Below are positions 16,180 through 41,091 of a stretch of 64,000 nt of DNA, in pieces. Within the stretch, counting starts at the first letter, position 1; every line of letters starts with the position of its first letter. The position numbers and the translations under genes are program-made. Source of the DNA: Patescibacteria group bacterium UBA5147 (lineage in GTDB: Bacteria > Patescibacteriota > Saccharimonadia > UBA4664); assembly GCA_002415345.1 (NCBI GenBank), contig DHXV01000003.1:24213-88212 (forward strand), given 5' to 3'. Under the pieces are notes generated by a model. The model was given only the letters and a program-made list of their open reading frames with translations. It was not told where the DNA came from and searched no databases.

Positions 16180-17286
16180 CTATTGAATGACCCAATAATC
16201 AAAGGCGTAGCCACGGCCCGAGTATATGCCTGAGGCTGCCCCAATAGTAAAGTCGGTAGCCGTGCGTTGGACGTAATAGGGCAGCGCCCCGGCAAATGAC
16301 CCGACGGGAGTTATCAGAACCCGGGGCACCCGCCCGTAAGCGGTATGGAAAGTGACTTTAATGAGTAATCCGCCTCCCGCCGTAGCGGCATTGGTGACTG
16401 AACCGGTATTGACGGAAACGGTACCCGCAGAATCATTGCCATCGATGTTGGCCGAGGCGCCACCGCCAGCCTCACTCCCTAAGCTTATGCCGGGGCGTTG
16501 GCCGGTAATAATCAGGTGGCCGCTCAGGTTGAGGTTGCCGGTAACGGCCAGAGTCGAAGTATTGATGACGCCGGCGGACAAACTCCCGCCGAACGTCCCG
16601 TTGCCGCTGGCCGAGAGGTCGCCCTTGGCCGTGGCCCCGCCGTTTAAGAGCGCCGGGCTTTGCAGGATGAGCGGCCCGGTGACGTTCAGGGCGGCACGAA
16701 CGTTAGTGACGCCAAGGGTTGATGTCTTATCGACGATCAGGTCGCCCAGGTTGGCGGATCCAGGAGCGGAAATGCCGCCAATAACCTTGAGGTCGTTATT
16801 TATCGCAACGCGGTTTGAGAATAACGTGGAGGAAGAAATGGTCAGAACCTGAGACGAGCCGCCGCCCGCCCCGCCAAAAAACGTTCCCAGTTTTTCCAGG
16901 TCTTTTTGGTCGAGGGTCGTCACTTTGGGCGCGGTCACTACGGTCTTTTTATTCGTTTGAGTCAGGTATAAATAACCCCCCAGAACGAGGCCGGCGGCAA
17001 TTATTGCCACCACGAAGGTTACGAGCGTCGTGATAATGTCGGCACGTTGGTAAACCGAAGTCAGGGAAGCGCGTCCCTTGGCGACGACTCCAGCCGAGAT
17101 TCCAGCGCCGGGATCCAGCACGGTCGGGACCGTACCGTCTGAGAGGGGGTCGGCCTGAAGCTTGCCGCCTGCGAGAGGTTGCGCCTCAGCTTCATCCCCG
17201 GCAGCGGGGGTCACCAAATTGTCCGGCTCGGCAACAGGAGTAGGGTCGGTTTTGGTTGTATCTTCGTCGCTCATCATCGTGCTCAC
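16180..17286 (-). CDS. membrane-anchored beta-helical repeat protein (paralog 1 of 2)
   Basis: 368 aa. Acidic/Pro-rich N-terminus, one TM, then Gly/Thr/Asn-rich repeats (LxVxGxxNLxG...). Conserved C-terminus GRGYAFDYWVIQ shared with 33001-33918. Confidence 0.55.
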   Translation of the reverse strand: MSTMMSDEDTTKTDPTPVAEPDNLVTPAAGDEAEAQPLAGGKLQADPLSDGTVPTVLDPGAGISAGVVAKGRASLTSVYQRADIITTLVTFVVAIIAAGLVLGGYLYLTQTNKKTVVTAPKVTTLDQKDLEKLGTFFGGAGGGSSQVLTISSSTLFSNRVAINNDLKVIGGISAPGSANLGDLIVDKTSTLGVTNVRAALNVTGPLILQSPALLNGGATAKGDLSASGNGTFGGSLSAGVINTSTLAVTGNLNLSGHLIITGQRPGISLGSEAGGGASANIDGNDSAGTVSVNTGSVTNAATAGGGLLIKVTFHTAYGRVPRVLITPVGSFAGALPYYVQRTATDFTIGAASGIYSGRGYAFDYWVIQ

Positions 17287-17375
17287 TCAGTAATAATATG
17301 ATAGCGGTTACGCTTAGGTTTGTACAACCTGGCAGCTATCCGGGGCGGGCGTATGGTATATTCTAAGTAACGGTT

Positions 17376-18317
17376 ATGGTTGTCAAACTAAGTCATCATC
17401 GGCATTCGGGGCGGTTAAGACCCCATCACGAGACGTCTTATGCGTTGCTCGTATTTTTGCTAATGGTTACGACCATCGTTGTGGCTGCCGTAACTACGCC
17501 TGCCAAGGCGGCACTCACAGGATCAGGTTCCTACAGCGTATTGGCTGTAGTGCCCGGACCGCGTCCGACGCAACCAGCTATCATTACTTCACCGGTCAAC
17601 GGGCAGATCTTCCAGACGAACCCCATTACCGTTGTGGGAACGTGCCCTAAGGGAACGCTGATTAAAATATTCAAGAACGGGGTTCTCGCTGGGAGCATCA
17701 TCTGTGACAGTACCGGTCATTTCAACCTGCCCATCGACCTGCTGATTGGTTCCAACGCTCTCACGGCCGTTGCTTTTAACACTAACGATCAGGCTGGTCC
17801 GGATTCGCCGGCCGTCAATGTGACGCTCAACGTGCCGGCCGGGGGATTCGGTTTCTCCAGCGAGCTGATATTGCAATCCACCAGTTATTACCGCGGGGTA
17901 GTCCCGGGTCAACAAGTGGTGTGGCCCATTGATATCGTGGGCGGGCTAGCTCCGTATGCCGTCAACTTTGAATGGGGCGACGGTACCAGCAGCCTGGTTA
18001 CGCGGCTTGGTCCCGGACCGTTCACCCTTGAGCACGTATACAATAAGGTCGGGGGATATCTGGGAGCATTCCCGTTGATTATCCGGGCCACAGACGCCGC
18101 CGGGCATACCGCTTACTTGCAACTGACAACCATTGTCAACGACCCGACGGCCGCAACGGCCTCCACGACCAAAGGTGGCGGCACGGGTTTTAACGTCAGC
18201 AGCGTTATGGTTATTTGGCCGCTTCTCATAGTTTTGTTCCTGATTGTACTGGCCTTCTGGCTCGGTGAGCGTCGTGAAGAAGGCATTATGCAGCGACAAA
18301 TGGCAGCGTTGGCGTAA
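17376..18317 (+). CDS. bitopic membrane protein with Ig-like and PKD-like domains (paralog 1 of 2)
   Basis: His-rich N-terminus HHRHSGRLRPHHETSYA, TM, PKD signature FEWGDGTSS...HVY, C-terminal TM ending WLGERREEG. Paralog of 39227-40180. Confidence 0.6.
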   Translation: MVVKLSHHRHSGRLRPHHETSYALLVFLLMVTTIVVAAVTTPAKAALTGSGSYSVLAVVPGPRPTQPAIITSPVNGQIFQTNPITVVGTCPKGTLIKIFKNGVLAGSIICDSTGHFNLPIDLLIGSNALTAVAFNTNDQAGPDSPAVNVTLNVPAGGFGFSSELILQSTSYYRGVVPGQQVVWPIDIVGGLAPYAVNFEWGDGTSSLVTRLGPGPFTLEHVYNKVGGYLGAFPLIIRATDAAGHTAYLQLTTIVNDPTAATASTTKGGGTGFNVSSVMVIWPLLIVLFLIVLAFWLGERREEGIMQRQMAALA

Positions 18318-18325
18318 GGGGGATT

Positions 18326-18901
18326 ATGATTAAGACACGACTTGCAAAGACAATTTCGATTCTAATCCTGGTAGGGGCGATTTTCGGCTTTGCCATTATA
18401 TTCCTGATGAGGTTCGTCGACGGCCCCGTCTCGGGCAAGGTCAGCTCCACAACGCTGGCCGATGTCAAGGCCAGTGCCGCACCCACCCCACTACCGGCGC
18501 ACCAGCTCGCCGGACTGTATGTAGCCTTGGATTACCCGGCAACCTATGACCAGCTGGCCCAAATTAAAACCGACAAAACGGCCTTGGAACAATATGATAT
18601 GTCCCCAAAGGGCGATTACCGCCAGTCGATTACCGTTCACGTCGCCGAGTTGCCTTCAGGCGATCCGCACGAGGACGCAAGCTACCGCATTCGCGAGCTG
18701 AACACTGCCGAATATCGATCGACGGTTATTCCAGGCGGTGACCGGACTGTCCTTATGACTAAGGCTGACGGCAGCGAACAGACCTTGTTTGTGGTGCATA
18801 AGGCGAGGCTGCTCACCGTAGCGGTGACGTCCACCAGCACCAAGGCGACCGCCAAGGAGATCATGGCAATAATCCAACCAAGCGTGAGGTGGATCCAGTG
18901 A
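18326..18901 (+). CDS. N-terminally anchored hypothetical protein
   Basis: 191 aa, signal-anchor TM (ISILILVGAIFGFAIIFLM), no recognisable motif. Co-oriented and overlapping with the next gene. Confidence 0.45.
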   Translation: MIKTRLAKTISILILVGAIFGFAIIFLMRFVDGPVSGKVSSTTLADVKASAAPTPLPAHQLAGLYVALDYPATYDQLAQIKTDKTALEQYDMSPKGDYRQSITVHVAELPSGDPHEDASYRIRELNTAEYRSTVIPGGDRTVLMTKADGSEQTLFVVHKARLLTVAVTSTSTKATAKEIMAIIQPSVRWIQ

Positions 18902-19953
18902 CGGGAGGCAGATGGCTGCAGGCCGTCCTGTCGGCGGTGATGCTTGCCGCCCTACCGGCGAGCGGTAACTACCAGCTCAATTCCTACGGGTTCGGCACAG
19001 GCGGCACTGCCGGGACCAGTTCGGCCAACTACTCCATTAACGGCATCGCCGGGGATATGGCCGGATCTGCGGCTTCGGCCAATTTTAAAATCGGCGGGGG
19101 GGAAACCTTCGCTAAACAGGCTGATGCCCCCACGGTAACAATCGCTAACAATGCCCAGTGGTATAACAAACTGCTGCTGACGATAGGTCCCGAAGGCAAT
19201 CCTAGCGATGCGCTGTTTGCGGTGGCCATCTCCACCGACAGCTTTGCGACCACCCAGTATGTTAAAAGCGACCTGACTGTGGGCTCGAGCCTGACTCTGG
19301 CCGATTACCAGACTTATGCCGCCTTTGGCAGCGGGAGCGGGGTCTTGATCCGCGGGCTTAAATCGGGAACGGTGTATACCGTAAAAGCCAAAGCGTACCG
19401 CGGCCATTACACGGAGTCCGGCTACGGGCCAACTGCCAACGTCGCGACGGCCGACCCGCAATTATCATTCGACATCAATGTATCAGCAGCCAACACCGTG
19501 ACGGCGCCGCCATATGTCGCGAGCTTCGGTAACCTGTTGCCGAGCAGTGTGACTAATGCCCCTCTGCCGATATGGATTAACTTTGCCTCCAACGCCGAGT
19601 CGGGCGGGAACGTGTATCTCACGGGCCAGAACGCCGGCCTCAGGTCGGCGACCAGCACCTATACCATTGCTTCGCAGTCGGGCGATATCAGCGCGCTCAG
19701 CGAAGGTTTCGGTGCTCAGGTTGCAAGCGTTACTCAAACCTCCGGCGGCCCGTTGTCGGCCTCGGCGCCTTATAACGGCGGCGGATCCATCGTCGGTATC
19801 GCGGACACGGTTTATCGGACCATCATAACGGCCACGGCGCCGGTCGTAGGCGGCCAAAGCTCGGTAACACTCAAGGCCAAGTCCCAGGCGTTGACCCCGG
19901 CTTCCAGTGATTATTCCGAGCTACTGACTCTTGTGGCAGCGGCCAGTTTCTAA
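18889..19953 (+). CDS. secreted surface-subunit family protein, subfamily A
   Basis: Signal peptide, N-terminal NY.LN...G.GG...SANF repeats shared with 34036-34800, Thr/Ser/Gly/Ala-rich body. C-terminus DYSELLTLVAAASF (family motif). Confidence 0.6.
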   Translation: MDPVTGGRWLQAVLSAVMLAALPASGNYQLNSYGFGTGGTAGTSSANYSINGIAGDMAGSAASANFKIGGGETFAKQADAPTVTIANNAQWYNKLLLTIGPEGNPSDALFAVAISTDSFATTQYVKSDLTVGSSLTLADYQTYAAFGSGSGVLIRGLKSGTVYTVKAKAYRGHYTESGYGPTANVATADPQLSFDINVSAANTVTAPPYVASFGNLLPSSVTNAPLPIWINFASNAESGGNVYLTGQNAGLRSATSTYTIASQSGDISALSEGFGAQVASVTQTSGGPLSASAPYNGGGSIVGIADTVYRTIITATAPVVGGQSSVTLKAKSQALTPASSDYSELLTLVAAASF

Positions 19954-20094
19954 TGATGTGGTGTTGTGGAAAAGAAACGTTGTAAAAAGTGTTGACAAGC
20001 CTAAGCGTATTGCTGTAAATTAAGCGTAAGTAGTTTTAAAAACAAAACGTCGGTGGAAAAACTAAACACGCCTCCGACAGAAAATAAACCAAAA

Positions 20095-21213
20095 ATGAAA
20101 TCCAGAAAATTAAAACTCATCTTTGCTACCACCACGGCTATAGTTTTAGAAATTATGGCACCTACCTTTATTCAGGTGGCTAACGCCGCGAGTGCGCCTC
20201 AGTTCACGGAGACATTTGTGCGGGTTGATCGTCACAAGGCTCTTACACAAACTGGTCTCATGGTCTGTGCCAAGCCGTCGGCGGCCAGTACCGCCGGAAT
20301 TGAAGCGGCAGTGAATATAACGTTACCGACATTGTTGGGCGCGGGCACGGACTTTGTGGTGAACGCGACAGCCGCCAACTGGACGGTAGACGTTTTGAAT
20401 CTACCAACTGAGCCAGGCAGCACCGGCCCAGCCGTGGCTGCAACCGCATGGCCAGGAATCGGAACCGCCACGAATGTCAGCGGACATACCGTAACGTTCC
20501 CATCGGGAGACCTGACAGCTGCGACTCTTTACTGCTTCCACATCTCCGGGACTAACACCTTTACGACCAGTACTGCCGCCGCAGGATCAGCCATCGTTAA
20601 TGCGACTTTGTACACTGAGGACAGCGTTCCGGCTACAATCAACCAAACAAACTGGTCAACCTCGGTAATCACTGACGACCAAATCGTAATCTCCGCCATC
20701 GTACCTCCTAGCTTCTCACTGACTCTCGATGGTAATACCGATGCCTTCCAGTTCAATCTGGACCCGGCCGCCACAATCAGCACCGGCGGCCGTACCGTCA
20801 GCGTCGTCACCAACGCAGTAGGTGGATGGATAGCCTGGGTAAAGGACACCCAGCAGGGCCTATACTCCGCGACGGCTAACTACACCATCCCGACCAAAGG
20901 GACGATCAACGCCACTCCCGAAGCGTTAACGAACGGCACCGAAGGCTACGGATTAGTCACATCCATTACCACGGCCAACGTGGGCGGCTGTACGACGGTA
21001 GTAGATCCGGAGTACAACGGCTCAGCCACCGACGTGGGTGCCTTCAGCGCATCCTTCCAGCCGATCGCCGCCTGTACCAGGACAGGGGCTCCTCCTGGAA
21101 CCTCCGACGGTGACGTGCTCACCCTGATCGAGCGGGCGACCATCAGAGGTGGTACTCCGGCCGGATCAGACTACTCGGACATTCTTACCATCGTCGGAGC
21201 CGGTAACTTCTAA
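20095..21213 (+). CDS. secreted surface-subunit family protein, subfamily B
   Basis: MKSRKLKLIFATTTAIVLEIMAPTFIQVANA signal peptide. The tracked GTG 20053 is 42 nt upstream. ANWTV, YCF.ISGT, AIVPPSFSLTL.GNTD motifs shared with 21337-22419. C-terminus DYSDILTIVGAGNF. Confidence 0.6.
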   Translation: MKSRKLKLIFATTTAIVLEIMAPTFIQVANAASAPQFTETFVRVDRHKALTQTGLMVCAKPSAASTAGIEAAVNITLPTLLGAGTDFVVNATAANWTVDVLNLPTEPGSTGPAVAATAWPGIGTATNVSGHTVTFPSGDLTAATLYCFHISGTNTFTTSTAAAGSAIVNATLYTEDSVPATINQTNWSTSVITDDQIVISAIVPPSFSLTLDGNTDAFQFNLDPAATISTGGRTVSVVTNAVGGWIAWVKDTQQGLYSATANYTIPTKGTINATPEALTNGTEGYGLVTSITTANVGGCTTVVDPEYNGSATDVGAFSASFQPIAACTRTGAPPGTSDGDVLTLIERATIRGGTPAGSDYSDILTIVGAGNF

Positions 21214-21231
21214 ACCGCCTTAATCGAGCAG

Positions 21232-21259
21232 GGAAGCCATGAAAATGGCTTCCTTTTGC
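21232..21259 (+). terminator. rho-independent terminator
   Basis: ggaagccat-gaaa-atggcttcc followed by TTTTGC. Confidence 0.55.
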
Positions 21260-21288
21260 TTGTAGCAGCATTTTGTTCTTGCAACCTG

Positions 21289-21302
21289 CTTATGCTTTAG
21301 CT
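21289..21302 (+). promoter_or_regulatory. CTTATGCT-type extended -10 promoter element (operon 21337-24446)
   Basis: ctgCTTATGCTttagct, 41 nt upstream of the start codon. Confidence 0.35.
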
Positions 21303-21336
21303 AAACTACGTTCAGTAGTGTAGTGAAAGAGGTTAT

Positions 21337-22419
21337 ATGCGGAGCTTACAGCCCCGAGCGATTTATCGAATTGTTATTATTGTGGCAATCGTACTGAGTA
21401 CGTTGTCAGTATTTACTCCTGCTTCAGCTGGGGCTGTCGGCTTTCAACAGGCGTATATCCGCCTGGACCGTCTGAAAGCCAACACGGCAACCGGTGGAAC
21501 CGTTTGTGCCACGCCGGCATCAGCTGCCACGGAAGGCAAAGTAGTTCTAACGTTTCCCTCGACCTATACTCTCAATACCACCGCGGCCAACTGGACCGTC
21601 ACAACAACCAATCTCCCGACGGGCGCCACTGCCTGGGTTGGTATTACGACTGCGACCGCCATTGATAACGTACTAAAAACCGCCACCTTTACATCGGGTG
21701 ATCTCACCGTAGCTACAGAGTACTGCTTTAATTTTTCCGGAACCACCACACTGACCACGGCTGCTAGCGCGGCCACGAACCAACAGGCGAACATTCAGAC
21801 CCAGACGAGCGGTGCAGTCGTGATTGATTTCACCAATATCGCTTTTGCCAACATTAACGATGACCAAATTCTGGTAACCGCCGTGGTCCCGCCATCGTTC
21901 AGCTTCACACTGTCCGGTAACACTGATCCGTTTGTGACCAACCTTGATGCAACCCAGGTGATTTCCACGAGTGGCAAGACAGTTACCGTCACCACCAACG
22001 CCAAAGGCGGCTGGATAGCCTGGGCTAAGGACAGCCAACAGGGCCTGCATTCAGCAACCGCCAACTACACTATCAACACTACCAGCGTGGTATCTGGTTC
22101 ACCGCCCCTAAAACAAGTTTCTGCCGGCGTCGAAGGGTACCTCCTTGATACCGATTTAACTACCGACGCAGCCAGCGGGTGTACACTTGCAATTGACACG
22201 TCTTACGGCGGTACGACTACTGGTGTACCAGTAACTTTGGCAACTGGCGGTGCCTTTAGCGCCAACTTCCAATCGATAGCTGCTTGTACGGGTGCGTCGC
22301 CAGCCTTCTCTGCCGGGGACGTGATCACCCTGATTGAGCGGGCTGCAATTACCAATGCCACGCCAGCTGCCAGCGACTATACTGATATTGTCACTGTTGT
22401 GGGCGCCGGTAACTTTTAG
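21337..22419 (+). CDS. secreted surface-subunit family protein, subfamily B
   Basis: Signal peptide. Paralog of 20095-21213 (ANWTVTTTNLP, YCFNFSGT, AVVPPSFSFTLSGNTD). C-terminus DYTDIVTVVGAGNF. Confidence 0.6.
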   Translation: MRSLQPRAIYRIVIIVAIVLSTLSVFTPASAGAVGFQQAYIRLDRLKANTATGGTVCATPASAATEGKVVLTFPSTYTLNTTAANWTVTTTNLPTGATAWVGITTATAIDNVLKTATFTSGDLTVATEYCFNFSGTTTLTTAASAATNQQANIQTQTSGAVVIDFTNIAFANINDDQILVTAVVPPSFSFTLSGNTDPFVTNLDATQVISTSGKTVTVTTNAKGGWIAWAKDSQQGLHSATANYTINTTSVVSGSPPLKQVSAGVEGYLLDTDLTTDAASGCTLAIDTSYGGTTTGVPVTLATGGAFSANFQSIAACTGASPAFSAGDVITLIERAAITNATPAASDYTDIVTVVGAGNF

Positions 22420-22443
22420 ATCATTTCTGTACAAAGGTCCTTC

Positions 22444-23505
22444 ATGAAGAAACGTTTCCTTCTTTCCCTGTCATTTATCACGCTTATTGGGGCACAAGCT
22501 CTTATCCCCCTAGTTGCTGTGGCGGTCGATTCTAAACCATTAAATCTGATAACCTCGCCGCTACCGATTAACTTGGCGACCGATCCGGGCAAAACCGTGA
22601 GCACGGATCTGAGAATTAAACAGGCCGGCGGCGACACCCAGCGCCTCAAGGTCAGCCTCATGAAATTTGCCGCCTATGGCAGCGAAGGCAAGCCCAGGCT
22701 GGTTGACCGCGGTCCGGGAGACAATTATTTTGACTGGGTAAAATTTGATAAGACCCAGTTCGACGCCCCTTCCAACGTTTGGCAAACAGTGCATATGACG
22801 ATCAACGTTCCTAAGGATGCCGCTTTTGGTTACTACTACGCCGTGGTTTTTAGCCGTGAGGGGGATGACACGCGCCAGGCCGGTAACACCAACGCCATAA
22901 ACGGTGGCACGGCCGTTTTAGTGCTGTTAGATGCCAAGGTGCCCAACGCTGTCCGCTCGCTGCAGTTAAACGCTTTTACGTCCGAACATCGGCTCTACGA
23001 GTTTTTGCCGGCCAAGTTCAAGGTCAGCTTCCACAATAGCGGGAATGTCCATCTGGTCCCGACGGGCAATATTTTCATTAGCAAAGGCAAGACTCAGGTT
23101 GCCACACTATCGATAAATGCTGAACAGGGCAATGTTCTCCCTCAATCCAACCGGGTATACGATAGTAGCTGGGGTGACGGTTACCCTCATAGTGAACCGG
23201 TGGTTGAGGGCGGAAAAACCAAAATCGACGCCAAAAACCAGGAGGTGGACCATTTGGTGTGGAGTAACGGCGAAGGCAAGGACATCACACCCCATCTACG
23301 CATGGGCAAGTATACGGCCCATTTGTTTGCCGTTTACGACGACGGCCAGCGTGACGTACCGGTAGAGAGCGAAATTAGCTTTTGGGTGATCCCGTGGCGC
23401 TTCCTCTTGGCTCTGCTGGGTGTGGCACTACTCATCGGATTCGGCGTCTACGGCTTAATCCGCGGAACCTGGAGCGGGGCGCGTAAGATAGGGCGTAAGA
23501 AATAG
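22444..23505 (+). CDS. two-Ig-domain cell-surface protein with C-terminal TM anchor (CscA/DUF916-DUF3324-like architecture), paralog 1 of 3
   Basis: Signal peptide, beta-rich ectodomain with NSGNVHLVP and GNVLP motifs. C-terminus SFWVIPW + TM + GRKK basic tail. Confidence 0.6.
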   Translation: MKKRFLLSLSFITLIGAQALIPLVAVAVDSKPLNLITSPLPINLATDPGKTVSTDLRIKQAGGDTQRLKVSLMKFAAYGSEGKPRLVDRGPGDNYFDWVKFDKTQFDAPSNVWQTVHMTINVPKDAAFGYYYAVVFSREGDDTRQAGNTNAINGGTAVLVLLDAKVPNAVRSLQLNAFTSEHRLYEFLPAKFKVSFHNSGNVHLVPTGNIFISKGKTQVATLSINAEQGNVLPQSNRVYDSSWGDGYPHSEPVVEGGKTKIDAKNQEVDHLVWSNGEGKDITPHLRMGKYTAHLFAVYDDGQRDVPVESEISFWVIPWRFLLALLGVALLIGFGVYGLIRGTWSGARKIGRKK

Positions 23506-23507
23506 CG

Positions 23508-24446: not shown

Positions 24447-24508
24447 CTGGAAGTTGGGTTTTTCCTTATGGTTAAGCCTTATAACTCTTGTGTTTAAGTA
24501 ACAAAACC

Positions 24509-24522
24509 CTTATGCTATAAGG
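24509..24522 (+). promoter_or_regulatory. CTTATGCT-type extended -10 promoter element (giant-protein operon)
   Basis: ccCTTATGCTATAAGgg. TGn + TATAAG, embedded in the inverted repeat CCCTTAT-gct-ATAAGGG. Confidence 0.4.
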
Positions 24523-24539
24523 GTAAATGTTGTTATGGA

Positions 24540-28550: not shown

Positions 28551-28555
28551 GGTTG

Positions 28556-32965: not shown

Positions 32966-33000
32966 ACAGTACTTTGCGGACGACAGTTTGTTATCCGAGG

Positions 33001-33918
33001 CTATTGGGTTACGAAGTAGTCGAAAGCGAGCACTGAGCCGGCCGGAGGGGGAGAATCGGTACGTATCTGGAATCCGGAGGAAGTGCGGTTTACGTAGACA
33101 GGAGTTGCGGCGCTTGCCCCGGTAAGCGGCGACAGCAGAACATGGACGCCACCGGTGAAGCCCGCGCGGAAGGTAACCGAGGCCAAGATTCCGGCTGCCG
33201 TGCCGCTGCCGGTGTTAACGTTAACGGTACCCGCAGTGTCGTTACCGCTGATGTTAACCGTTCCGCCGCCGCCAATGGCGCTTCCGGCCGTGATTCCCGG
33301 GGTTGCGCCTTGGGTGCGCAGATGTCCGATGGTCAGAGGCCCGGCAATGGAAATAGTTTGCGTGGAAATGGATTGCGTGTTCAGCGTGTTGACGCTGGCT
33401 GCTCCGCTCACATTGAGGCCGCCATTCACTGACAGTAACTGAGAAACTGTCAGTCCTTTAAGCAGGGTGGTTGTTCCTGATACCGTTAGATTGGACCCCA
33501 CGCTCAGTCCGGAAAGTGCGGTGGTGCCGCTGATATTAAGCTCACTCAAGGTTACTGGCCCGTTGGCATTGAAATGGCCGCCCACACTAAGGTCGCCGGC
33601 GACGTCCAATTTCCCGCGGAACAGGGAATTGGCGCCAATATTAAGGGTCTGGTTGGAGTTACCCAGGCTGGTGCTGACGTCGGTAAGCTTTTGGATATCT
33701 TCCTGACTCAAGGTCTGGACCTGGGTTTTAGCGGGAACAGCCGTTTTCTTGGTACTCAGCGAATAAAAGTATCCCACCACAGCCCCGACGAATAACACGC
33801 AGATGAGCAGCGCGACAACGGTTGAAATATTGTTGGCCCGCCTGATCATGCGCGACCATGAACGCCCCTCCTTACGGGGCGGCGGGTTTGTGGGGGTTGG
33901 CAGTGTGGTAGGGGGCAT
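33001..33918 (-). CDS. membrane-anchored beta-helical repeat protein (paralog 2 of 2)
   Basis: 305 aa. Basic N-terminus, TM, LNISGTTALSGLSVGSNLTVSGTTTLL beta-helix-like repeats. C-terminus VLAFDYFVTQ matching 16180-17286. Confidence 0.55.
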   Translation of the reverse strand: MPPTTLPTPTNPPPRKEGRSWSRMIRRANNISTVVALLICVLFVGAVVGYFYSLSTKKTAVPAKTQVQTLSQEDIQKLTDVSTSLGNSNQTLNIGANSLFRGKLDVAGDLSVGGHFNANGPVTLSELNISGTTALSGLSVGSNLTVSGTTTLLKGLTVSQLLSVNGGLNVSGAASVNTLNTQSISTQTISIAGPLTIGHLRTQGATPGITAGSAIGGGGTVNISGNDTAGTVNVNTGSGTAAGILASVTFRAGFTGGVHVLLSPLTGASAATPVYVNRTSSGFQIRTDSPPPAGSVLAFDYFVTQ

Positions 33919-33950
33919 TTGGGTAAATTCTCTTATCTATCAATATAGCG

Positions 33951-33966
33951 CTTATGCTCCTACAAT
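33951..33966 (+). promoter_or_regulatory. CTTATGCT-type promoter element in the divergent region 33919-34035
   Basis: gcgCTTATGCTcCTACAATcc. Confidence 0.35.
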
Positions 33967-34035
33967 CCAACTCTACAATCGTTAATTAGCCTAAGCGGTT
34001 TGAAAATATCATTGGTATAGGCCATTATAGATAAC

Positions 34036-34800
34036 ATGAGACGATTGCGAATTGTAGGAGTATACGCCCTGGCCGGCATAATTGGCTGGCCCACCGCGGC
34101 CCTGGCCGTGACCCCGGGCGACCCGTCATTCAGGTCGACTAACTACAGTATCAACGAGAGCTATATTGGACCGGGCGGGGACAGCCAGGGCATCTCCACC
34201 AGCTATAAGACTCAAGGCTCAACCTTGGGAGATACCGGCGTAGGTAATTCCGGCTCGGCCAACTTTCAGGCCAACAGCGGTTATGACACCACCAACGATC
34301 CGCGGTTGAGTTTTACCGTTAACACGGCTTCCGCCGATTTAGGCGTTCTGTCCACGTCTGTGGCGTCTACGGCCACGGCTACCTTCAGTGTCCTCAATTA
34401 CACGTCGTACGGGTACGTCGTTTCTATGGTGGGAAGTCCGCCTAGTAATAGCGGGCATCCGCTGTCTGCCCTTGCAACCGATACTGCCAGTGCTAACGGG
34501 GTGGAACAATTTGGAATTAACCTGGTTGCCAACACGAGCCCGGTGTCGGTAGGAGCTAACCCGGTTCAGGACGTCAGCGGTTCCACCACATTTGGTTTTG
34601 GGCGCGCCGGTACCGGCGCCGGCACGGCCTATGCTCAAACTAATTTGTATCGATACGTTCCCGGCGAAACCATCGCCTCGGCACCAAAATCCTCTGGCAT
34701 AACCAACTACACGATGTCGTTTATGGCCAACATGAGTACCACGACTCCAGGTGGCAAATACTCGGGTCCCATGACGCTCATTTGTACCGGTACATACTAA
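34036..34800 (+). CDS. secreted surface-subunit family protein, subfamily A
   Basis: Signal peptide. STNYSINESYIGPGG...SANFQANSG N-terminus (paralog of 18889-19953), FGINLVANTSP. C-terminus YSGPMTLICTGTY. Confidence 0.6.
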   Translation: MRRLRIVGVYALAGIIGWPTAALAVTPGDPSFRSTNYSINESYIGPGGDSQGISTSYKTQGSTLGDTGVGNSGSANFQANSGYDTTNDPRLSFTVNTASADLGVLSTSVASTATATFSVLNYTSYGYVVSMVGSPPSNSGHPLSALATDTASANGVEQFGINLVANTSPVSVGANPVQDVSGSTTFGFGRAGTGAGTAYAQTNLYRYVPGETIASAPKSSGITNYTMSFMANMSTTTPGGKYSGPMTLICTGTY

Positions 34801-34823
34801 TTAATGTCACTAACATAAGCGGG

Positions 34824-34852
34824 TTGACCTGGTAATTATTCTTATGCTAATA
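34824..34852 (+). promoter_or_regulatory. sigma70-like promoter with CTTATGCT extended -10 (subfamily C operon)
   Basis: -35 TTGACC, 17-nt spacer, cttaTGcTAATAT. Confidence 0.45.
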
Positions 34853-34893
34853 TTCATGCATTAGTATGGTCATAAAAGGGAATTGAATTAACC

Positions 34894-36012
34894 ATGAAAA
34901 ACGTATCAATTAAATTAAAGGACTTGCGTCGGAAACTGGCCGTATGGGCTTCCGTTGTTGCTATGGCATCGATGGCATTGCTTCCAGGCGCTGCTAGTGC
35001 AGCCGGCCAATTGACTGCTCGTAAGACCGTGCTTACTAGTTCGGCAGCTGCCGCAGTGACAACTTACGTCACCACATTCACTATGGGAACCGCCGGCCAA
35101 ACGCTGGGTTCCTTAAAAGTTGAACTATGCGACTCGCCGCTTCAAACTGCCTCGTGTGTCAACACTGGTAGCTCCTCCGGCGTTAGCATGTCTGCTGCCG
35201 CTTTAACTGGCGTTACCGGTGCAGTTGGAACGGGTACCTGGACTATAGGTACCAGAACCGCTAATTCCGCCCTGGTTAACAAGTCCACAAACGATGTTCA
35301 GACCGCTAACCCAACCCTGGTTGTAACCTTGACCACCATTACGAACCCAACGGCGATCAACTCGCCATTCTATCTCCGCGTTTCAACCTACACAGCTACA
35401 GCCGGTGGTGGAACTAATACCGACTTTGGTGCCATGGCACTGTCTACTACCCAATCATTAACTGTTTCAGCCAACGTTCAGGAAAGTCTGACCTTCTGCA
35501 CTGGCACCAACGTTGCTTCAACGAGCTGTGGTGATATCACTGGCAGCACCGTTAGCGTCGGCACTGGTACCGACAACATCCTATCGACATCACCATCGGG
35601 TGGAGTATCCGTCATGTACGCGGCTACCAACGGCACCAGTGGGTACTCCGTTACCTACTTTGCCGCGAACTTCTCGTCTTCTAGCGACACCATTGCGTCC
35701 AACGGTGCTGTCAAAGCCGCCTTACCGGCAGTCGGAACCGCCGCCTTCGGTATCAACCTGGCTGCCAACGCGACGCCGTCAATTACCGGTTCTTCCGCAG
35801 TCTCTGGTGCCGGTTCAGGCGCCGTGGATGCCAACTACAACACCGCAAACCAATTCGCTTTTGTACCCTCGGCAGCATCGGCCGTGGCTTCAGCGGCCGG
35901 GCCTACCCTCATAAACAAGTACGTCGTGTCATACGCCGGTCAAGCTGGCAGCACGACCAAGCCTGGCGCCTTCTCGACAGTCTTCACCTACGTCGCTACC
36001 GCCACTTTCTAA
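34894..36012 (+). CDS. secreted surface-subunit family protein, subfamily C
   Basis: Signal peptide, conserved Cys pair (ELCDSPLQTASC; LTFCTGT), FGINLAANATP. C-terminus FSTVFTYVATATF. Confidence 0.6.
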   Translation: MKNVSIKLKDLRRKLAVWASVVAMASMALLPGAASAAGQLTARKTVLTSSAAAAVTTYVTTFTMGTAGQTLGSLKVELCDSPLQTASCVNTGSSSGVSMSAAALTGVTGAVGTGTWTIGTRTANSALVNKSTNDVQTANPTLVVTLTTITNPTAINSPFYLRVSTYTATAGGGTNTDFGAMALSTTQSLTVSANVQESLTFCTGTNVASTSCGDITGSTVSVGTGTDNILSTSPSGGVSVMYAATNGTSGYSVTYFAANFSSSSDTIASNGAVKAALPAVGTAAFGINLAANATPSITGSSAVSGAGSGAVDANYNTANQFAFVPSAASAVASAAGPTLINKYVVSYAGQAGSTTKPGAFSTVFTYVATATF

Positions 36013-36058
36013 GACTCTCTCTCGTTATTCTAGTAACCATTAACGACTGAAGCCAATC

Positions 36059-37096
36059 GTGAAAATAAACCGACTCATTTTAAAAGCCATTCTTGTCGCA
36101 ACTGCGGTATCCATACTACCGCTTGCGGCCATGGCAACAGAGGTAACCGATCGGAGTATTACGTTAGGTTCCTCTGCCCCGGGAGCTATAACGACCCATA
36201 CTTTCGGCCTCACCGTACCGAGCACTGCAAATGTTGGATCCATTGAGTTCAAATATTGCACCACACCCCTCGGTGCCTGCACCACCCCCGCGGGCCTCGT
36301 TACCACCGTCGCGTCGCTAATAAACCAGACGGGTGCTACAGGCTTCAGTGTAGTCAACACTAATAACGGCACGCCGTACATTTCACGCGGTTCCGCCAGT
36401 ATTCCGGCGACAACGCAAGTCACATATCAGTTCTCCGGTGTAACCAACCCGTCAGGGGTGAACGTCGAATATTGGGTCCGGGTTAACACCTACGCGAGCA
36501 TCGACACCACCGGTTCCCCTATAGATGGCGGAGTCGTCGACTTTGTTACCACAAGTGATATCACCGTTTCAGGAATCATGCCTGAATCACTGATCTTCTG
36601 CGTCGGAACCAGTGGCACCAGTTGTGCCAATATTACCGGTAGTGCCGTGAGTCTTGGAATTTTCAGTCCGGCTCTTACCAACACGGGTACCAGTGTGATG
36701 AGTGCCAGTACTAACGCCTCATTCGGATACACTATCGCGCTGGCTGGAAGTACTCTCAGTTCCGGGGCCAATACTATTACATCCATGGGGCAGCAGTCTC
36801 AGAACGGTACGGCCTCGGCGTCGGCCGTTGGGACAAGCCAGTTCGGAACGAATCTTAGAGCTAACTCAACACCACCTGTCGGAGCGAACGTGAGTGGTTT
36901 GGGCACAGGAGTAGTCGTAGGCGGGTATAATGTCGTCGATAATTTCCGCTACTTCTCAGGTGATACTTTGGCTAACGCGGGTGGCCCGGTCAACGATAAT
37001 CTCTTCACGAACTCATACATCGTCAACGTGAGCCCCGATCAGGCGGCCGGAGTCTATACCGCTACCATGACCTACATTTGTACGGCGACCTTCTAA
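36059..37096 (+). CDS. secreted surface-subunit family protein, subfamily C
   Basis: GTG start. Signal peptide, FKYCTTPLGACTTPAGLVTT, LIFCVGT, FGTNLRANSTP. C-terminus YTATMTYICTATF. Confidence 0.6.
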   Translation: MKINRLILKAILVATAVSILPLAAMATEVTDRSITLGSSAPGAITTHTFGLTVPSTANVGSIEFKYCTTPLGACTTPAGLVTTVASLINQTGATGFSVVNTNNGTPYISRGSASIPATTQVTYQFSGVTNPSGVNVEYWVRVNTYASIDTTGSPIDGGVVDFVTTSDITVSGIMPESLIFCVGTSGTSCANITGSAVSLGIFSPALTNTGTSVMSASTNASFGYTIALAGSTLSSGANTITSMGQQSQNGTASASAVGTSQFGTNLRANSTPPVGANVSGLGTGVVVGGYNVVDNFRYFSGDTLANAGGPVNDNLFTNSYIVNVSPDQAAGVYTATMTYICTATF

Positions 37097-38109
37097 TGAC
37101 GACGCGCCGCAGTACGGCCATAGCTGTAATCGTGGCTTTGTTGCCGTTTACGGCGAATGCTGCCGCCCTCATCCCCCGGTCGGTACAGCTGGGTTCAAGC
37201 CAAGCCGGCGTAACAACCACTAATACGGTGGCTGTCATGACGGCGACCACATCGAACATTGGGTCCATTGGTTTGAAATACTGTACGACCGCCGCCGGCG
37301 CGTGTACTACTCCCGCCGGCCTTGTAACCACTAGCGCAAGCCTCACCGGACAGATCGGGATAGCCGGCTTTAGTATTAATAACGTGGTCAACGGGGCGCC
37401 GTTTATTAGCAATGGGGCAGTACCGAATGTGAACGTTGGCACGTTGGTTACGCTTAATTTGAGTAGCATCGTAAATCCGTCTAGCGCAAATACAACGTTT
37501 TTTATTCGGGTCACTACATATATCGGTACCGATGGCGCAACCAGTGTAGTCGATGCTGGAACGGTGGCGGTAAGTACCGCACAGGAAGTCCAACTCACAG
37601 GGGTCACGCCGGAAATTCTAATCTTCTGCGTTGGCATCACTATAACCACTGATTGCAGTTCCATGACCGGATCAAATATCGACTTTGGTGATTTTTCGCC
37701 ACAATCTACCCGCACCGGTTCCAGCGTGATGCAGGCCTCAACAAATGCGACCGGGGGGTATAGCGTTACGGTGAACGGAACAACGCTGGCGTCGGGGGTG
37801 AACACAATCCCGGCGCTGGCCGCTCAAACTATATCAACCGTGGGAACGGGGCAGTTTGGTTTGAATCTGCGAGCTAACTTCACACCGGCTGTTGGGGCTG
37901 ACCCAACCGGAGCCGGTACCGGCACGTTTACAGGCACTTATGGCGCTCAGAACCAATACCGATTCAATACGGGTGATTCGGTAGCTACAGCCGCAATGCC
38001 AACCAATGCTAATACGTATACTTCCAGTTATATTGTGAATATCGGTGGGATACAGGCGGCTGGTGTTTATACGTCAACTATGACATATATTTGTACCGCA
38101 AATTTTTAG
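37096..38109 (+). CDS. secreted surface-subunit family protein, subfamily C
   Basis: ATG overlaps upstream stop (TAATG). LKYCTTAAGACTTPAGLVTT, LIFCVGIT, FGLNLRANFTP. C-terminus YTSTMTYICTANF. Confidence 0.6.
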   Translation: MTTRRSTAIAVIVALLPFTANAAALIPRSVQLGSSQAGVTTTNTVAVMTATTSNIGSIGLKYCTTAAGACTTPAGLVTTSASLTGQIGIAGFSINNVVNGAPFISNGAVPNVNVGTLVTLNLSSIVNPSSANTTFFIRVTTYIGTDGATSVVDAGTVAVSTAQEVQLTGVTPEILIFCVGITITTDCSSMTGSNIDFGDFSPQSTRTGSSVMQASTNATGGYSVTVNGTTLASGVNTIPALAAQTISTVGTGQFGLNLRANFTPAVGADPTGAGTGTFTGTYGAQNQYRFNTGDSVATAAMPTNANTYTSSYIVNIGGIQAAGVYTSTMTYICTANF

Positions 38110-38178
38110 AGTCTTCGGGACATTTTAACATTGTGCAATCCTCTAAAAAAACCAAGACGCAGGTTGTATACTAACGCC

Positions 38179-38191
38179 CTTATGCTATTAT
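38179..38191 (+). promoter_or_regulatory. CTTATGCT-type extended -10 element immediately upstream of 38199
   Basis: ccCTTATGCTATTATtac. ATG follows 8 nt after the hexamer. Confidence 0.4.
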
Positions 38192-38198
38192 TACTTTA

Positions 38199-39203
38199 AT
38201 GCAAAAGTGGTTTACTAGAGGAATAACGGTTGTCGCGGCGTTAGTCGTGGTTTCGTCGTCGCTGGCTCTTGCTGCTACGCCTGTTCCGACCGCCACGCCA
38301 AAGGCCACCAATTCGGGTCAGGGTCTTGAGATATCGCCCCCGGTCATTGAGCTGAGCGCCGATCCAGGCCAGACTGTCACCGCTACGATTCGAGTTCGAG
38401 ACGTATCCTCGGGTCCGCTCATCGCCAAAGGTCGGGCCGATGACTTTGGGGCTGGCACCGCCGAAGACGGACAGCCAAAATTGTTATTGGATGAGCAGGG
38501 CGCAACGCGCTACTCTCTCAAATACTGGATACCGAGCGTTCCTGATCTTAATCTAGCACCTCAGGAGCTTAAAACTGCGGTAGTAAACATTATCATCCCC
38601 AAGAACGCCGAGCCGGGGGGGCACTTTGGTGTTATTCGGTTCACCGCAGTTCCGCCGGATTTGGCAGGCACTGGAGTATCTCTTTCGGCAAGTGTCGGTA
38701 CGTTGGTCCTACTTAAGATTTCGGGTGCAGTGAAAGACGATCTGAGTCTAGCTGAATTAAGCACAGGTGCCGTAGATGCCAAGGGCGCCTTCAAGTCCAA
38801 ATCCCGCTTCTTCGAAACGGGCCCGGTGGGATTCCTGGTGCGCCTGCGTAATAACGGTACCGTCCATGAAAAAGCTACTGGCGGTATCACTGTTACAGAT
38901 ACCTTCGGCAATAACGTGGCAACCGTCGCCGTGAATGACAAGGGTGGCAACGTCCTCCCAGACAGTATCAGGCGTTTTGAGCAAACGCTCGCCAAAAAGA
39001 ACCTGTTCGGCCATTACAACGCCAAGCTTAGCCTGACATACCTGGGCGGACAGAAGAAGATTGATGCCACGACCAGTTTTTGGGTGATTCCATGGGTATT
39101 GATTCTGGATGTAATCGTAGTACTGGTGATACTGTTCTTTGCCCTAAGGTTCTCGCTCAAAAAATATAACCAGCACATCATTGCTCAGGCCCGTCGTAGA
39201 TAA
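38199..39203 (+). CDS. two-Ig-domain cell-surface protein with C-terminal TM anchor, paralog 3 of 3
   Basis: NNGTVHEKATG, GNVLPDSIRRFE. C-terminus SFWVIPW + TM + ARRR. Start only 8 nt downstream of a -10-like TATTAT, so possibly a leaderless mRNA. Confidence 0.6.
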   Translation: MQKWFTRGITVVAALVVVSSSLALAATPVPTATPKATNSGQGLEISPPVIELSADPGQTVTATIRVRDVSSGPLIAKGRADDFGAGTAEDGQPKLLLDEQGATRYSLKYWIPSVPDLNLAPQELKTAVVNIIIPKNAEPGGHFGVIRFTAVPPDLAGTGVSLSASVGTLVLLKISGAVKDDLSLAELSTGAVDAKGAFKSKSRFFETGPVGFLVRLRNNGTVHEKATGGITVTDTFGNNVATVAVNDKGGNVLPDSIRRFEQTLAKKNLFGHYNAKLSLTYLGGQKKIDATTSFWVIPWVLILDVIVVLVILFFALRFSLKKYNQHIIAQARRR

Positions 39204-39207
39204 AGCA

Positions 39208-39220
39208 CTTATGCTACACT
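39208..39220 (+). promoter_or_regulatory. CTTATGCT-type extended -10 element immediately upstream of 39227
   Basis: caCTTATGCTACACTag. ATG follows 6 nt after the hexamer. Confidence 0.4.
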
Positions 39221-39226
39221 AGAAAC

Positions 39227-40180
39227 ATGAAATACGGTCTCTGGCAACTTATAGCGCATCATCATTCGGGGAGACTCCGGCATCATAGCCATACGTCATA
39301 TGCCGGGTTGATGTTCGCATTACTCCTTACCGGAGTGTTGCTTGTTGGCTCCAGTATAGCGACACTGGCCGCCGTGCCGCCCGTGAACCCCCAGAGCGGA
39401 TCAGTTGGCCTGACCGGGGCCGTGAGGGGGCCGGCTCCGTCACAGGCCGCCACCATCATCAGTCCGGCCAACGGAACCCGGACAACCACCATACCGCTGA
39501 GTGTTTCAGGTAACTGTCCGGCGAACACCTTCGTCCTTATTACCAAGAACGGAGCCTTTGCCGGTGCGACCGATTGCTCGGCTAACGGCACCTATAAGCT
39601 TGATATCGACTTATTTGACGGCCAGAACCAACTGGTTGCCAAAGTGTCCGATGCTCTTGGCCAATATGGCCCCGACTCCGTTCCGGTCTCGGTGTTTTAC
39701 GCCGCGCCAAGTTTTGGTGTTCCTGGCGGGAGCGTCGGGCGGCAGCTGTTCTTGCAGGCCGATGCCACGGTGTATGCCGTTTCGCCCGGCCAGGACCTGT
39801 CGCGCAGCGTCACGATTGTCGGTGGCGTCGGGCCATATGCCGTTTCCTGGGATTGGGGCGATGGTACGACCAGCCTGATCAGCCAGGGGGTGGAGGGGAC
39901 TATCGTAACCAGCCACTCGTATGAACGACCAGGCAACTACCGCGTGATCGTGCGCGTAACCGATGGTGCGAGCAACGCGGCTTTCCTGCAGCTGGTGACC
40001 ATCGTAAACGGGCCGGTCGCCGCCGCCGGTACAACTAATGGGAGCGGTTTGGGGGCACTTTCAGGTAATCTCCTGTCTGCTTGGCCGCTCTACATTTTAG
40101 CGTTATTAATGGTCTTGTTTTTTTGGATCGGCGAGCGCGTTGGACTCAGACAAAATCGGCAACGCGAACTCCATGCTTAG
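39227..40180 (+). CDS. bitopic membrane protein with Ig-like and PKD-like domains (paralog 2 of 2)
   Basis: HHHSGRLRHHSHTSYA N-terminus, TM, PKD signature SWDWGDGTTS...HSY, C-terminal TM + WIGERVG. Paralog of 17376-18317. Confidence 0.6.
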   Translation: MKYGLWQLIAHHHSGRLRHHSHTSYAGLMFALLLTGVLLVGSSIATLAAVPPVNPQSGSVGLTGAVRGPAPSQAATIISPANGTRTTTIPLSVSGNCPANTFVLITKNGAFAGATDCSANGTYKLDIDLFDGQNQLVAKVSDALGQYGPDSVPVSVFYAAPSFGVPGGSVGRQLFLQADATVYAVSPGQDLSRSVTIVGGVGPYAVSWDWGDGTTSLISQGVEGTIVTSHSYERPGNYRVIVRVTDGASNAAFLQLVTIVNGPVAAAGTTNGSGLGALSGNLLSAWPLYILALLMVLFFWIGERVGLRQNRQRELHA

Positions 40181-41048: not shown

Positions 41049-41091
41049 GCATTGACGCAGCAATCATTCGTAACGTAAGAGGGCAAGAGTA

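Follow-up and report, generated by a model that had tools for sequence, protein, structure and literature searches.

A conserved 24-kb locus of a Saccharimonadia genome with two probable Pam-type pilus gene sets

Two gene modules between rplU and parA

We analysed a 64-kb window (64,000 nucleotides; contig DHXV01000003.1, positions 24,213 to 88,212) from Patescibacteria group bacterium UBA5147, a Saccharimonadia genome of the Candidate Phyla Radiation (CPR). The subject of this study is a block at positions 16180-40180 of the window, in which 17 open reading frames (ORFs) are tightly packed, with rplU on one side and parA/parB on the other, and which holds two gene modules related to the Pam pilus system of CPR bacteria (Table 1). 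A first-pass annotation of this DNA had described an array of genes between rplU and parA, and all of the genes it described were recovered. The guanine-cytosine content is uniform over the window (0.51-0.60), so the block is not marked as foreign DNA. The nearest genomes are metagenome-assembled genomes (MAGs) of Saccharibacteria/Saccharimonadia, and the protein encoded by the pilin gene P2b has an exact copy on a 247-kb ENA metagenome contig. Loci from other contigs are given L numbers below.

Module 2 (34036-40180) carries PamT, three two-domain pilins, one chaperone and PamR, an order that recurs in many other contigs. NCBIfam release 20 contains three CPR models named for the Pam pilus system: NF058578 (PamR, cut-off 300 bits), NF058579 (PamT, 240 bits) and NF058581 (Pam_pilin_C, 55 bits). 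Four of the seven pilin subunits of the block passed these cut-offs, namely PamT, P2a, P2b and P2c, and PamT additionally scored 144.4 bits against Pam_pilin_C. Judged by these profile matches, module 2 is a canonical Pam set. P2b and P2c are 49% identical, and P2a shares 31% identity with each of them in BLAST. The start of P2c was placed at a TTG (37078) by the ORF lister and at an ATG (37096) by the public gene call, which yields 337 amino acids (in L001). Because the first base of this ATG is the last base of the P2b ORF (an ATGA junction, 37093-37099), the genes of this most similar pilin pair are likely translationally coupled.

Module 1 (17376-24446) consists of PamR, a small transmembrane (TM) protein, a tip-like pilin (T1), two pilins and two chaperones. 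T1 carries an extra middle region between its N-terminal motif and its acceptor domain and ends in SDYSELLTLVAAASF; the NCBIfam PamT model aligned with residues 15-76 only (E 4.6e-7, 29.5 bits, far under the cut-off). For P1a, we found 629 homologues at E<=0.001, all unannotated, and the few with organism names come from Saccharibacteria/Saccharimonadia. The P1 family has at least 60 invariant positions, including those in the linker and the C-terminal motif. We utilized AlphaFold2 (AF2) to model P1a (predicted local distance difference test score, pLDDT, 76.7). The model comprises an N-terminal sandwich (50-201), an unpacked linker of low confidence (210-217) and a C-terminal domain (221-386), and its domains gave fold matches to CfaB, the PapG pilin domain and CsuA/B. 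The linker is both the least confident stretch (pLDDT <50 in the monomer model) and among the most conserved ones, with D209, A215, V217, P218, P219 and F221 invariant. The linker strands read SGIMPESLIFCVG in P2 and SAIVPPSFSLTLDG in P1.

The P1a gene has a sigma-70-like site just upstream (19992-20021, TTGACA-18-TAAATT, 10/12) and a strong hairpin just downstream (21230-21255, 11-bp stem, AGGGAAGCCAT-GAAA-ATGGCTTCCTT), both being consensus matches only. This arrangement resembles the pattern around the major-pilin genes of pap and fim operons, and because the two elements bracket the gene, P1a is possibly the major subunit of module 1. The small TM protein, which is specific to module 1, gave no Pfam, NCBIfam or PHROG match and occupies the same position, with 39-46% identity, in L004 and in the complete MAG CP064960 together with L088, an independent assembly of the same sequence.

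All seven subunits possess an N-terminal hydrophobic leader and share the C-terminal pattern [YF](-13)...T(-8)...[FY](-1)-COOH. These are the seven signal-peptide proteins with a common C-terminal strand motif that the first-pass annotation had recognised. The exact form Y-x4-T-x6-[FY]$ is present in six of them, and P2a has F at -13. The motif is lacking in the remaining 424 of the 430 stop-to-stop segments (60 amino acids or longer) of the window, and about 85 homologues on other contigs retain it. In an all-against-all BLAST, the subunits were joined only inside two groups. A first comparison of the P1 and P2 profiles with shallow alignments was ambiguous (58%) and was redone with deeper alignments, for which hhalign united both groups: P1-P2 97% (E 1e-10), P1-T1 97.7% over the C-terminal domain, and P2-T2 99.8%, where T2 is PamT. 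The P1-P2 match is 206 columns long; it starts in the last part of the N-terminal domain, runs through the linker and takes in the entire C-terminal domain. T1 and T2 were aligned over the Gly-rich N-terminal region (81.5%). The two modules are thus homologous by their pilins.

Each module also has its own PamR. The two copies are paralogues (41% identity by BLAST, 44% in alignment) and match NF058578 along the full length of the model. The module 1 copy has TM segments at 23-41 and 276-294, a His-rich N-terminal motif and Ig-like domains, and the module 2 copy has TM segments at 32-50 and 283-301. They had been described earlier as two PKD-TM paralogues; paralogy and TM segments stand, and the Pfam PKD match is confined to the module 2 copy (E 5.5e-9). 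The N-terminal strand of PamR is SGSVGLTG.

The His-rich motif of PamR, H-x-H-[TS]-G-[KR]-x-x-x-H-x-H-T-S-[YH], is strongly conserved and lies immediately N-terminal of the first hydrophobic segment. It is located at 17376-17450 and 39227-39320 in the window and occurs in about 35 loci (e.g., L003:9899-10927, L019:6163-7119 and L043:10872-11972). The motif survives in very divergent homologues and is atypical for the n-region of a cleaved signal peptide, and the NCBIfam PamR model begins only near its 'HTSY'. These features suggest an uncleaved N-terminal anchor with a cytoplasmic role, such as metal binding or a sorting signal.

The arrangement of the block is conserved. CP064960 keeps the order RodA-rplU-BH-module 1-FIB-giant-BH-module 2-ParA-ParB, with 40-67% protein identity across the block genes (BH and FIB are described below). 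Module 1 is syntenic in L004 as well, and both module types recur in other Saccharimonadia. Module 1 is therefore, in our view, a second Pam-type set that is complete though divergent, and it would build a separate pilus. Overall, the block is very probably a conserved super-locus of a Saccharimonadia genome with two complete Pam-type pilus gene sets.

Table 1 Features of the block and its borders. Coordinates are those of the window.
Feature	Coordinates	Strand	Basis or remark
rplU	15817-16125		upstream boundary of block
BH1, membrane-anchored tail-fibre-like protein	16180-17286	-	divergent from module 1, 90 bp from PamR start
PamR-like protein of module 1	17376-18317	+	NF058578 E 3.5e-85, 285.5 bits (cut-off 300)
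Small single-pass membrane protein, 191 aa, TM 10-28, module-1-specific	18326-18901	+	
T1, tip-like pilin	18889-19953	+	PamT-type Gly-rich N-terminal motif, Pam-type C-terminal acceptor domain
P1a, two-domain pilin	20053-21213	+	homologue family, AF2 model, hhalign
P1b, second two-domain pilin	21337-22419	+	49% identity to P1a; same C-terminal motif
C1a, membrane-anchored two-Ig chaperone, PamC/D-like, WxLIP-like	22444-23505	+	BLAST E 3e-21 to C2
C1b, second membrane-anchored chaperone	23508-24446	+	BLAST E 2e-17 to C2
FIB, 1336-aa T/A/G/S-rich surface protein	24540-28550	+	composition, N-terminal domain family
KEL, 1473-aa protein, N-terminal TM segment 30-48	28544-32965	+	Pfam Kelch families E 5e-38
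BH2, second tail-fibre-like membrane protein	33001-33918	-	divergent from module 2, 118 bp from PamT start
PamT, single-domain tip pilin, acceptor domain, no linker	34036-34800	+	NF058579 262.5 bits (cut-off 240)
P2a, two-domain Pam pilin	34894-36012	+	NF058581 79.9 bits (cut-off 55)
P2b, two-domain Pam pilin	36059-37096	+	NF058581 149.6 bits
P2c, two-domain Pam pilin	37096-38109	+	NF058581 167.9 bits
C2, membrane-anchored two-Ig chaperone	38199-39203	+	AF2 model, Foldseek
PamR of module 2, PKD domain	39227-40180	+	NF058578 E 3e-88, 295.5 bits (cut-off 300)
parA	40272-41048		downstream boundary of block; Pfam AAA_31 E 5e-59
parA/parB	40272-42000		downstream of block
Signal peptidase I, LCP enzyme and HtrA genes past parAB (four genes)	41997-42626, 42646-43395, 43493-45082, 45878-47032	-, -, +, +	

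Pilus identity and predicted assembly

The three chaperones, C1a, C1b and C2, are paralogues (26-29% identity, E 3e-21 to 7e-8 in BLAST). The AF2 model of C2 (pLDDT 84) consists of a leader, two beta-sandwiches of the immunoglobulin (Ig) type and a C-terminal TM helix (299-333). C1a has a leader and a C-terminal TM helix at 321-339 and belongs to families A4/A6, and the helix of C1b lies at 287-305. The proposal of three paralogous two-Ig, membrane-anchored proteins is therefore borne out by the paralogy in BLAST and by the model of C2.

Pfam and NCBIfam scans of all 17 block ORFs detected no sortase, usher, secretion ATPase, WxL, PapD or fimbrial domain, and a motif scan of the seven subunits found no C-terminal LPXTG, no W-x-L and no prepilin leader, in agreement with the same negatives listed in the first-pass annotation. 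We evaluated three known types of pili against these results. Sortase-assembled Gram-positive pili were rejected, as the pilins lack LPXTG and the block lacks a sortase domain; the pilin C-termini, ...T-x-x-[FY], have neither LPXTG nor a TM segment or basic tail. Type IV pili were rejected, as no block protein has a prepilin motif (G/FxxxE) in its first 60 residues and no assembly ATPase is encoded in the block, ParA being located outside it. Classical chaperone-usher pili were rejected, as no usher (PF00577 and related) was found in the block ORFs, the chaperones are TM-anchored, and the likeness to this class appears at the fold level only, with no PapD, Fimbrial or SCPU model among the Pfam matches of the block ORFs or those listed for their relatives. 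A PapC_C match in one relative of the BH proteins (E 0.73) is noise.

A relation of the pilins to the WxL domain was also considered, prompted by the likeness of the C-terminal Y-x3-hydrophobic-T-aromatic strand to WxL motifs, and was ruled out. The WxL model PF13731 matched none of 94 pilin-family members, and fold searches with the pilin model returned no WxL chain. Likewise, no Fimbrial or SCPU model was among the families listed for these 94 relatives. A Pfam scan of the pilins, chaperones, BH and FIB of the window gave no matches, and the Pam models emerged only from the NCBIfam scan. PDB sequence searches with P2b, P1a, BH and FIB returned nothing from a PDB copy that did not include the PamA/PamB structures.

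The Pam pilus of CPR bacteria was described by Troman et al. in a 2026 preprint (bioRxiv 10.64898/2026.03.03.709456). Cryo-electron microscopy of filaments of Ca. Mycosynbacter amalyticus identified the pilins PamA and PamB, which are joined by donor-strand exchange: each subunit places its inter-domain linker in the groove of the following one. The same operon encodes a third pilin, PamE, a linker-less tip pilin, PamT, the PapD/FimC-like chaperones PamC and PamD, which retain a C-terminal TM helix, and the RbmA-like, TM-anchored PamR, a proposed pilus terminator and anchor. The system has no usher or other envelope machine. The roles of PamT and PamR, chaperone capping, the tip-first order and termination by PamR come from AlphaFold models (bioRxiv 10.64898/2026.03.03.709456). 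Our PamR scan of the genome collection returned five loci only, and M. amalyticus was not recovered.

Carried over from the M. amalyticus homologues, assembly in the window would proceed as follows. All components would be exported by Sec. The C-terminal domain of each pilin, predicted to be an incomplete Ig-like fold with an open groove, would first be capped by a strand of a TM-anchored two-Ig chaperone (C1a, C1b or C2), and the next pilin would then insert its inter-domain linker strand into the groove. Growth would begin at the linker-less tip pilin (T1 or PamT), proceed with the two-domain shaft pilins, and stop once the N-terminal strand of PamR fills the last groove, with the TM helix of PamR tying the fibre to the cytoplasmic membrane. 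Neither an usher nor a sortase or ATPase would be required. Under this scheme, the window pilins would donate their inter-domain linker. Their conserved C-terminal strand is most plausibly the final strand of the acceptor domain, which is also its place in chaperone-usher pilins.

The first-pass annotation had proposed a chaperone-subunit-like fibre in which Ig/TM proteins act as membrane-tethered chaperones and proteins with a shared C-terminal strand polymerise. Chaperones and polymerising subunits agree with the M. amalyticus homologues, whereas the C-terminal strand would not be the donated one. This guess of the mechanism was right in substance, and its alternative, an epibiont attachment apparatus of a CPR cell, is functionally the same thing, given relatives among the Saccharibacteria/Saccharimonadia. 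Its title had denied the presence of a pilin gene, which does not hold, as these genes encode pilins of a new class. Nor is the system novel: the subunits have strong profile matches to a characterised family through the NCBIfam Pam models, and the system is already described and included in the annotation library.

By curated hidden Markov models (HMMs), module 2 contains the same families as the Pam system of M. amalyticus JR1 (PamA/B/E, PamT, PamC/D and PamR), with PamR just below its cut-off. Accessions of the M. amalyticus proteins are WP_260763277, 280, 282, 284, 287 and 289, and the preprint prints that of PamE as WP_26076385.1. The logic is also the same, with Sec leaders, two-domain linker pilins with a truncated Ig C-terminal domain, a linker-less tip, two-Ig chaperones anchored by a C-terminal TM helix, a PKD/Fn-type TM anchor, and no usher, sortase or ATPase. 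Both belong to the class Saccharimonadia; filaments were seen in M. amalyticus, whereas the window is known from its genes. Whereas a single operon with one PamR and two chaperones is described in the preprint, the block has two full sets side by side, with two PamR, two tip pilins, five shaft pilins and three chaperones. Further differences are that the module 1 pilins fall outside the current NCBIfam models, that T1 has its extra middle region, and that the flanks are ATP synthase, CorB and MFS genes in the preprint and rplU and parAB here (ATP synthase was sought only within the scanned ORFs). The Kelch and FIB-type giants are not discussed in the preprint.

Chaperone-usher pili (Pap/Fim, CFA/I, Csu/CupE) also share incomplete Ig-fold subunits, a conserved C-terminal strand ending in an aromatic residue, and a two-Ig chaperone. 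At the fold level, the window chaperone resembles CfaA, CsuC, DraB, Caf1M and SafB, and the pilin C-terminal domain resembles CfaB, PapG and CsuA/B. In contrast to these pili, the window has no usher, outer membrane or Pfam PapD, Fimbrial or SCPU match, its chaperones are TM-tethered, and its pilins have an extra N-terminal domain. The donor strand of chaperone-usher subunits is an N-terminal extension, whereas that of Pam, according to the preprint, is an internal linker. For TasA/TapA fibres of Bacillus and archaeal donor-strand filaments (cannulae and bundling pili), we found no sequence relation, and the comparison draws on the literature only. TapA is a subunit-like nucleator, and neither TasA/TapA nor the archaeal donor-strand filaments are known to have a two-Ig, TM-anchored chaperone.

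Several points weigh against assigning two Pam sets to the block. With 285.5 and 295.5 bits, the two PamR copies narrowly miss the equivalog cut-off of 300. Neither P1a nor P1b has a Pfam match or, at E<=0.1, an NCBIfam match, and the three chaperones likewise have no NCBIfam match at E<=0.1. M. amalyticus has a 55-kDa PamA, and no pilin of the window is of that size. The source on Pam is a preprint, with an assembly order built on AlphaFold models, and gene neighbourhood is the sole basis for the roles given to BH, FIB, KEL and the small TM protein.

Pam pili are proposed to serve the first contact of ultrasmall CPR parasites with host bacteria, and they are rare examples of usher-less pili assembled by donor-strand exchange. 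Some Saccharimonadia have two Pam sets, one of which is missed by current models, and surveys of Pam distribution will therefore undercount. Our additions to the known system are modest and partly inferential: an unannotated module beside the canonical one, the recurrence of giant and tail-fibre-like neighbours, and a link to WxLIP proteins.

Tail-fibre-like and giant proteins beside the modules

BH1 begins with a cytoplasmic N-terminus of low complexity, followed by a single TM helix (84-102) and a stalk resembling a beta-helix; its C-terminal domain is conserved and ends in FDYxVxQ. BH1 and BH2 share 36% identity in BLAST, in line with the earlier description of two beta-helical membrane paralogues, the beta-helix being inferred from profile matches. 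The BH family profile (alignment A5) matched a phage 'putative tail fiber protein' (PDB 9cuy_g, E 5e-5) in its repeat region, and among 12 members, weak matches to Bactofilin (8/12) and H_lectin (2/12) were detected. PHROGs contained no tail-fibre family for BH or FIB. BH is probably the 'tail fibre-like protein' that is central in the neighbourhood network of the preprint.

In FIB, a leader or TM segment (27-45) and a conserved N-terminal domain (FIBN, about 150 amino acids) precede a variable distal part. T, A, G and S make up 54% of its residues, self-BLAST revealed no internal repeats, and no Pfam, NCBIfam, PHROG or PDB sequence match was found. Across 12 relatives, FIBN is nearly invariant and the distal parts differ, with CBM_4_9 in two and a right-handed beta-helix in one. 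Searching for homologues of the FIBN domain was uninformative, yielding only 28 short unannotated fragments. An adhesin-like role in partnership with the pilus locus is probable for FIB. The C1b and FIB genes are 93 bp apart, and this gap contains a palindromic hairpin with an 8-bp stem (24506-24524) that is terminator-like on both strands.

KEL has at least 16 Kelch blade motifs at a spacing of about 55 amino acids, and these blades probably form three propellers. The FIB gene, which ends at a TAG (28548-28550), either overlaps KEL by 7 nt, if KEL starts at GTG 28544, or is followed by a 5-nt gap, if KEL starts at ATG 28556. Of the earlier claim of two translationally coupled giants, a repeat fibre and a multi-Kelch protein, the abutting or overlapping genes and the multi-Kelch protein hold, and the repeats do not, as FIB is composition-biased only. 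Kelch giants also follow FIB-type genes in L019, L022, L027 and L028. In CP064960, the second giant is instead a non-Kelch repeat protein with motifs like YYDKSGTALKVANYVGG (L003:1-3795, L088:20186-21140), which indicates that the partner of FIB is exchangeable between genomes.

We infer from their positions that BH, FIB and KEL work with the pili in host attachment, and as neighbours of the Pam modules they are obvious candidates for host-specific adhesins. Extending the two-set reading, one might regard all 24 kb as a single integrated apparatus, in which BH would be a membrane platform or usher substitute, and FIB and the Kelch protein would be host-binding adhesins mounted on the pilus or adjacent to it. 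BH is divergently upstream of both modules and of the tip pilin in about ten other loci (L003, L007, L008, L012, L019, L022, L025, L027, L028 and L035), and BH1 has the same position in L004 and CP064960. The central place of the tail fibre-like protein in the preprint's network points the same way, as do FIBN giants directly after PamR or the chaperone in 13 loci, distant ones included. A kept N-terminal domain with varying distal parts (CBM, beta-helix) is as expected for exchangeable adhesins. On the other hand, this evidence is of neighbourhood only, and the association is incomplete: BH is upstream in just 8 of 33 loci with enough upstream sequence, and a FIBN protein directly follows PamR in just 9 of 24 loci with enough downstream sequence (four more distant loci have it after the chaperone). 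Moreover, the second giant is swapped for an unrelated repeat protein in CP064960, and the preprint gives BH, FIB and KEL no assembly role, the tail fibre-like protein being only a conserved neighbour. We therefore offer the integrated apparatus as a tentative proposal, on which we would not rely.

In CP064960 (L087, CP064960:563433-584572), ileS, PamR, the second chaperone and the giant FIB gene are fragmented. Since the same genes are intact in the independent assembly L088 (Logan DRR830131), long-read frameshift errors are suggested as the cause of these splits, and not pseudogenes.

WxLIP likeness of the chaperones

A resemblance of the Ig/TM proteins to CscA (DUF916) had been pointed out earlier, and both fold and family searches support it. 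In a Foldseek search of the PDB with the C2 model, the top matches were EfmWxLIP1, free or bound to a long WxL protein (9i1y, 9i25; E 5e-10 to 4e-9, normalised TM-score 0.47-0.56), ahead of the chaperones CfaA, CsuC, DraB, Caf1M, SafB and CupB2 (E 4e-9 to 1e-6, normalised TM-score 0.43-0.49). PF06030 (WxLIP_PGBD, formerly DUF916) was matched by 20 of 26 close and 55 of 73 diverse chaperone relatives (best E 8e-8), and a profile of the 73 relatives matched EfmWxLIP1 over its whole first domain (E 0.06). PapD_N/C models were not among the 25 best-represented Pfam families listed for these 73 relatives. The three window chaperones themselves have no DUF916 match at E<=0.1, and DUF3324 (PF11797) was not among the Pfam hits of the family; the link between Pam chaperones and WxLIP is for these reasons probably remote homology rather than membership.

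The WxL/Csc system of Firmicutes (WxLIP, comprising DUF916, DUF3324 and a TM helix; CscA) is the only named system recovered by sequence for the Ig/TM family. It has a chaperone-like component of the same architecture, which is also the top structural match, and it likewise belongs to a monoderm envelope, with clusters of several secreted partners. For WxLIP, insertion of a hairpin strand into the WxL protein that it partners has been predicted (PMC10599100), and the Pam preprint mentions neither WxL nor DUF916 (bioRxiv 10.64898/2026.03.03.709456). The differences are that the partners here are not WxL-domain proteins (PF13731), that an LPXTG-bearing CscD-type protein and a DUF3324 match are absent, and that the DUF916 link appears only in relatives, at the family level.

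A broader reading joins these observations: Pam chaperones and WxLIP proteins would form one ancient family of strand-complementing chaperones tethered to the membrane, module 1 a second Pam class, and BH, FIBN and Kelch proteins working attachment parts. We consider this combination possible, with the balance leaning against it. If it were true, usher-less, chaperone-assisted assembly would be a general route to surface structures in single-membrane bacteria, and WxL clusters would be a non-filamentous or not yet recognised branch of it. The FIBN/Kelch adhesins could be docked, for example, via the nearly invariant N-terminal strand of the FIBN domain, GINxQINFQG. The likeness to Enterococcus/Lactobacillus WxLIP, closer than that to PapD, could tie a poorly understood, virulence-associated surface system of Gram-positive bacteria to a known assembly mechanism.

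The same likeness could instead mean that the product of the block is not a pilus but a WxL/Csc-type surface complex, whose Ig/TM proteins would hold secreted partners by strand insertion with no polymerisation into a fibre. The ranking of EfmWxLIP1 above every chaperone-usher chaperone, the PF06030 matches in the family, the family profile and the predicted strand insertion of WxLIP are all consistent with such a complex. However, curated HMMs identify the partners as Pam pilins, and cryo-electron microscopy showed the homologous PamA and PamB as filaments. WxL was found in 0 of 94 family members by Pfam and in 0 of 7 window subunits by motif, and the gaps in DUF3324 and DUF916 matches noted above count against it as well. 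No WxL protein is known to polymerise. A surface complex of this type is very unlikely, and the two Pam-type pilus sets remain our reading of the block.

That module 1 is a decaying or non-functional duplicate, with module 2 alone making the pilus, is the least credible alternative: its pilins go unrecognised by the NCBIfam Pam models and the shallow P1-P2 comparison was weak, yet none of its ORFs is disrupted, the more than 600 homologues of the P1 family keep invariant positions in the linker and C-terminal motif, synteny of the whole module extends to L004 and CP064960 (40-67% identity), and a PamR, a tip pilin and two chaperones belong to the module itself.

Flanking genes

Outside the block, both flanks consist of core genes, with ybeY, adk, map, ftsA, ftsZ, nrdR, ribonucleotide reductase, ileS and rodA upstream and two signal peptidases I, an LCP (LytR-CpsA-Psr) enzyme, HtrA, prmC, prfA, rpsB, tsf, frr and uppS downstream. 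The window is gene-dense, and scans for tRNA and Rfam families (at the gathering score) over positions 1-64000 found nothing. Between rodA and rplU, a gene at 14142-15722 encodes a 526-aa protein with an N-terminal zinc-ribbon-like CxxC...CxxC, a Pro/Ala-rich spacer and a TM segment. It has an SCO4651-family lipoprotein domain (NCBIfam E 2e-19), and its C-terminal part gave a faint match to the pseudopilin-like T2SS-G (E 0.036).

Directly past parAB lie two tandem signal peptidase I genes, followed by those for the LCP enzyme and the HtrA protease. These genes thereby adjoin a locus that exports 17 proteins. TasA has a dedicated signal peptidase, SipW, and one of the two peptidases here could conceivably serve pilin processing in the same way. 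A signal peptidase gene also follows parB in L003, L012 and L015.

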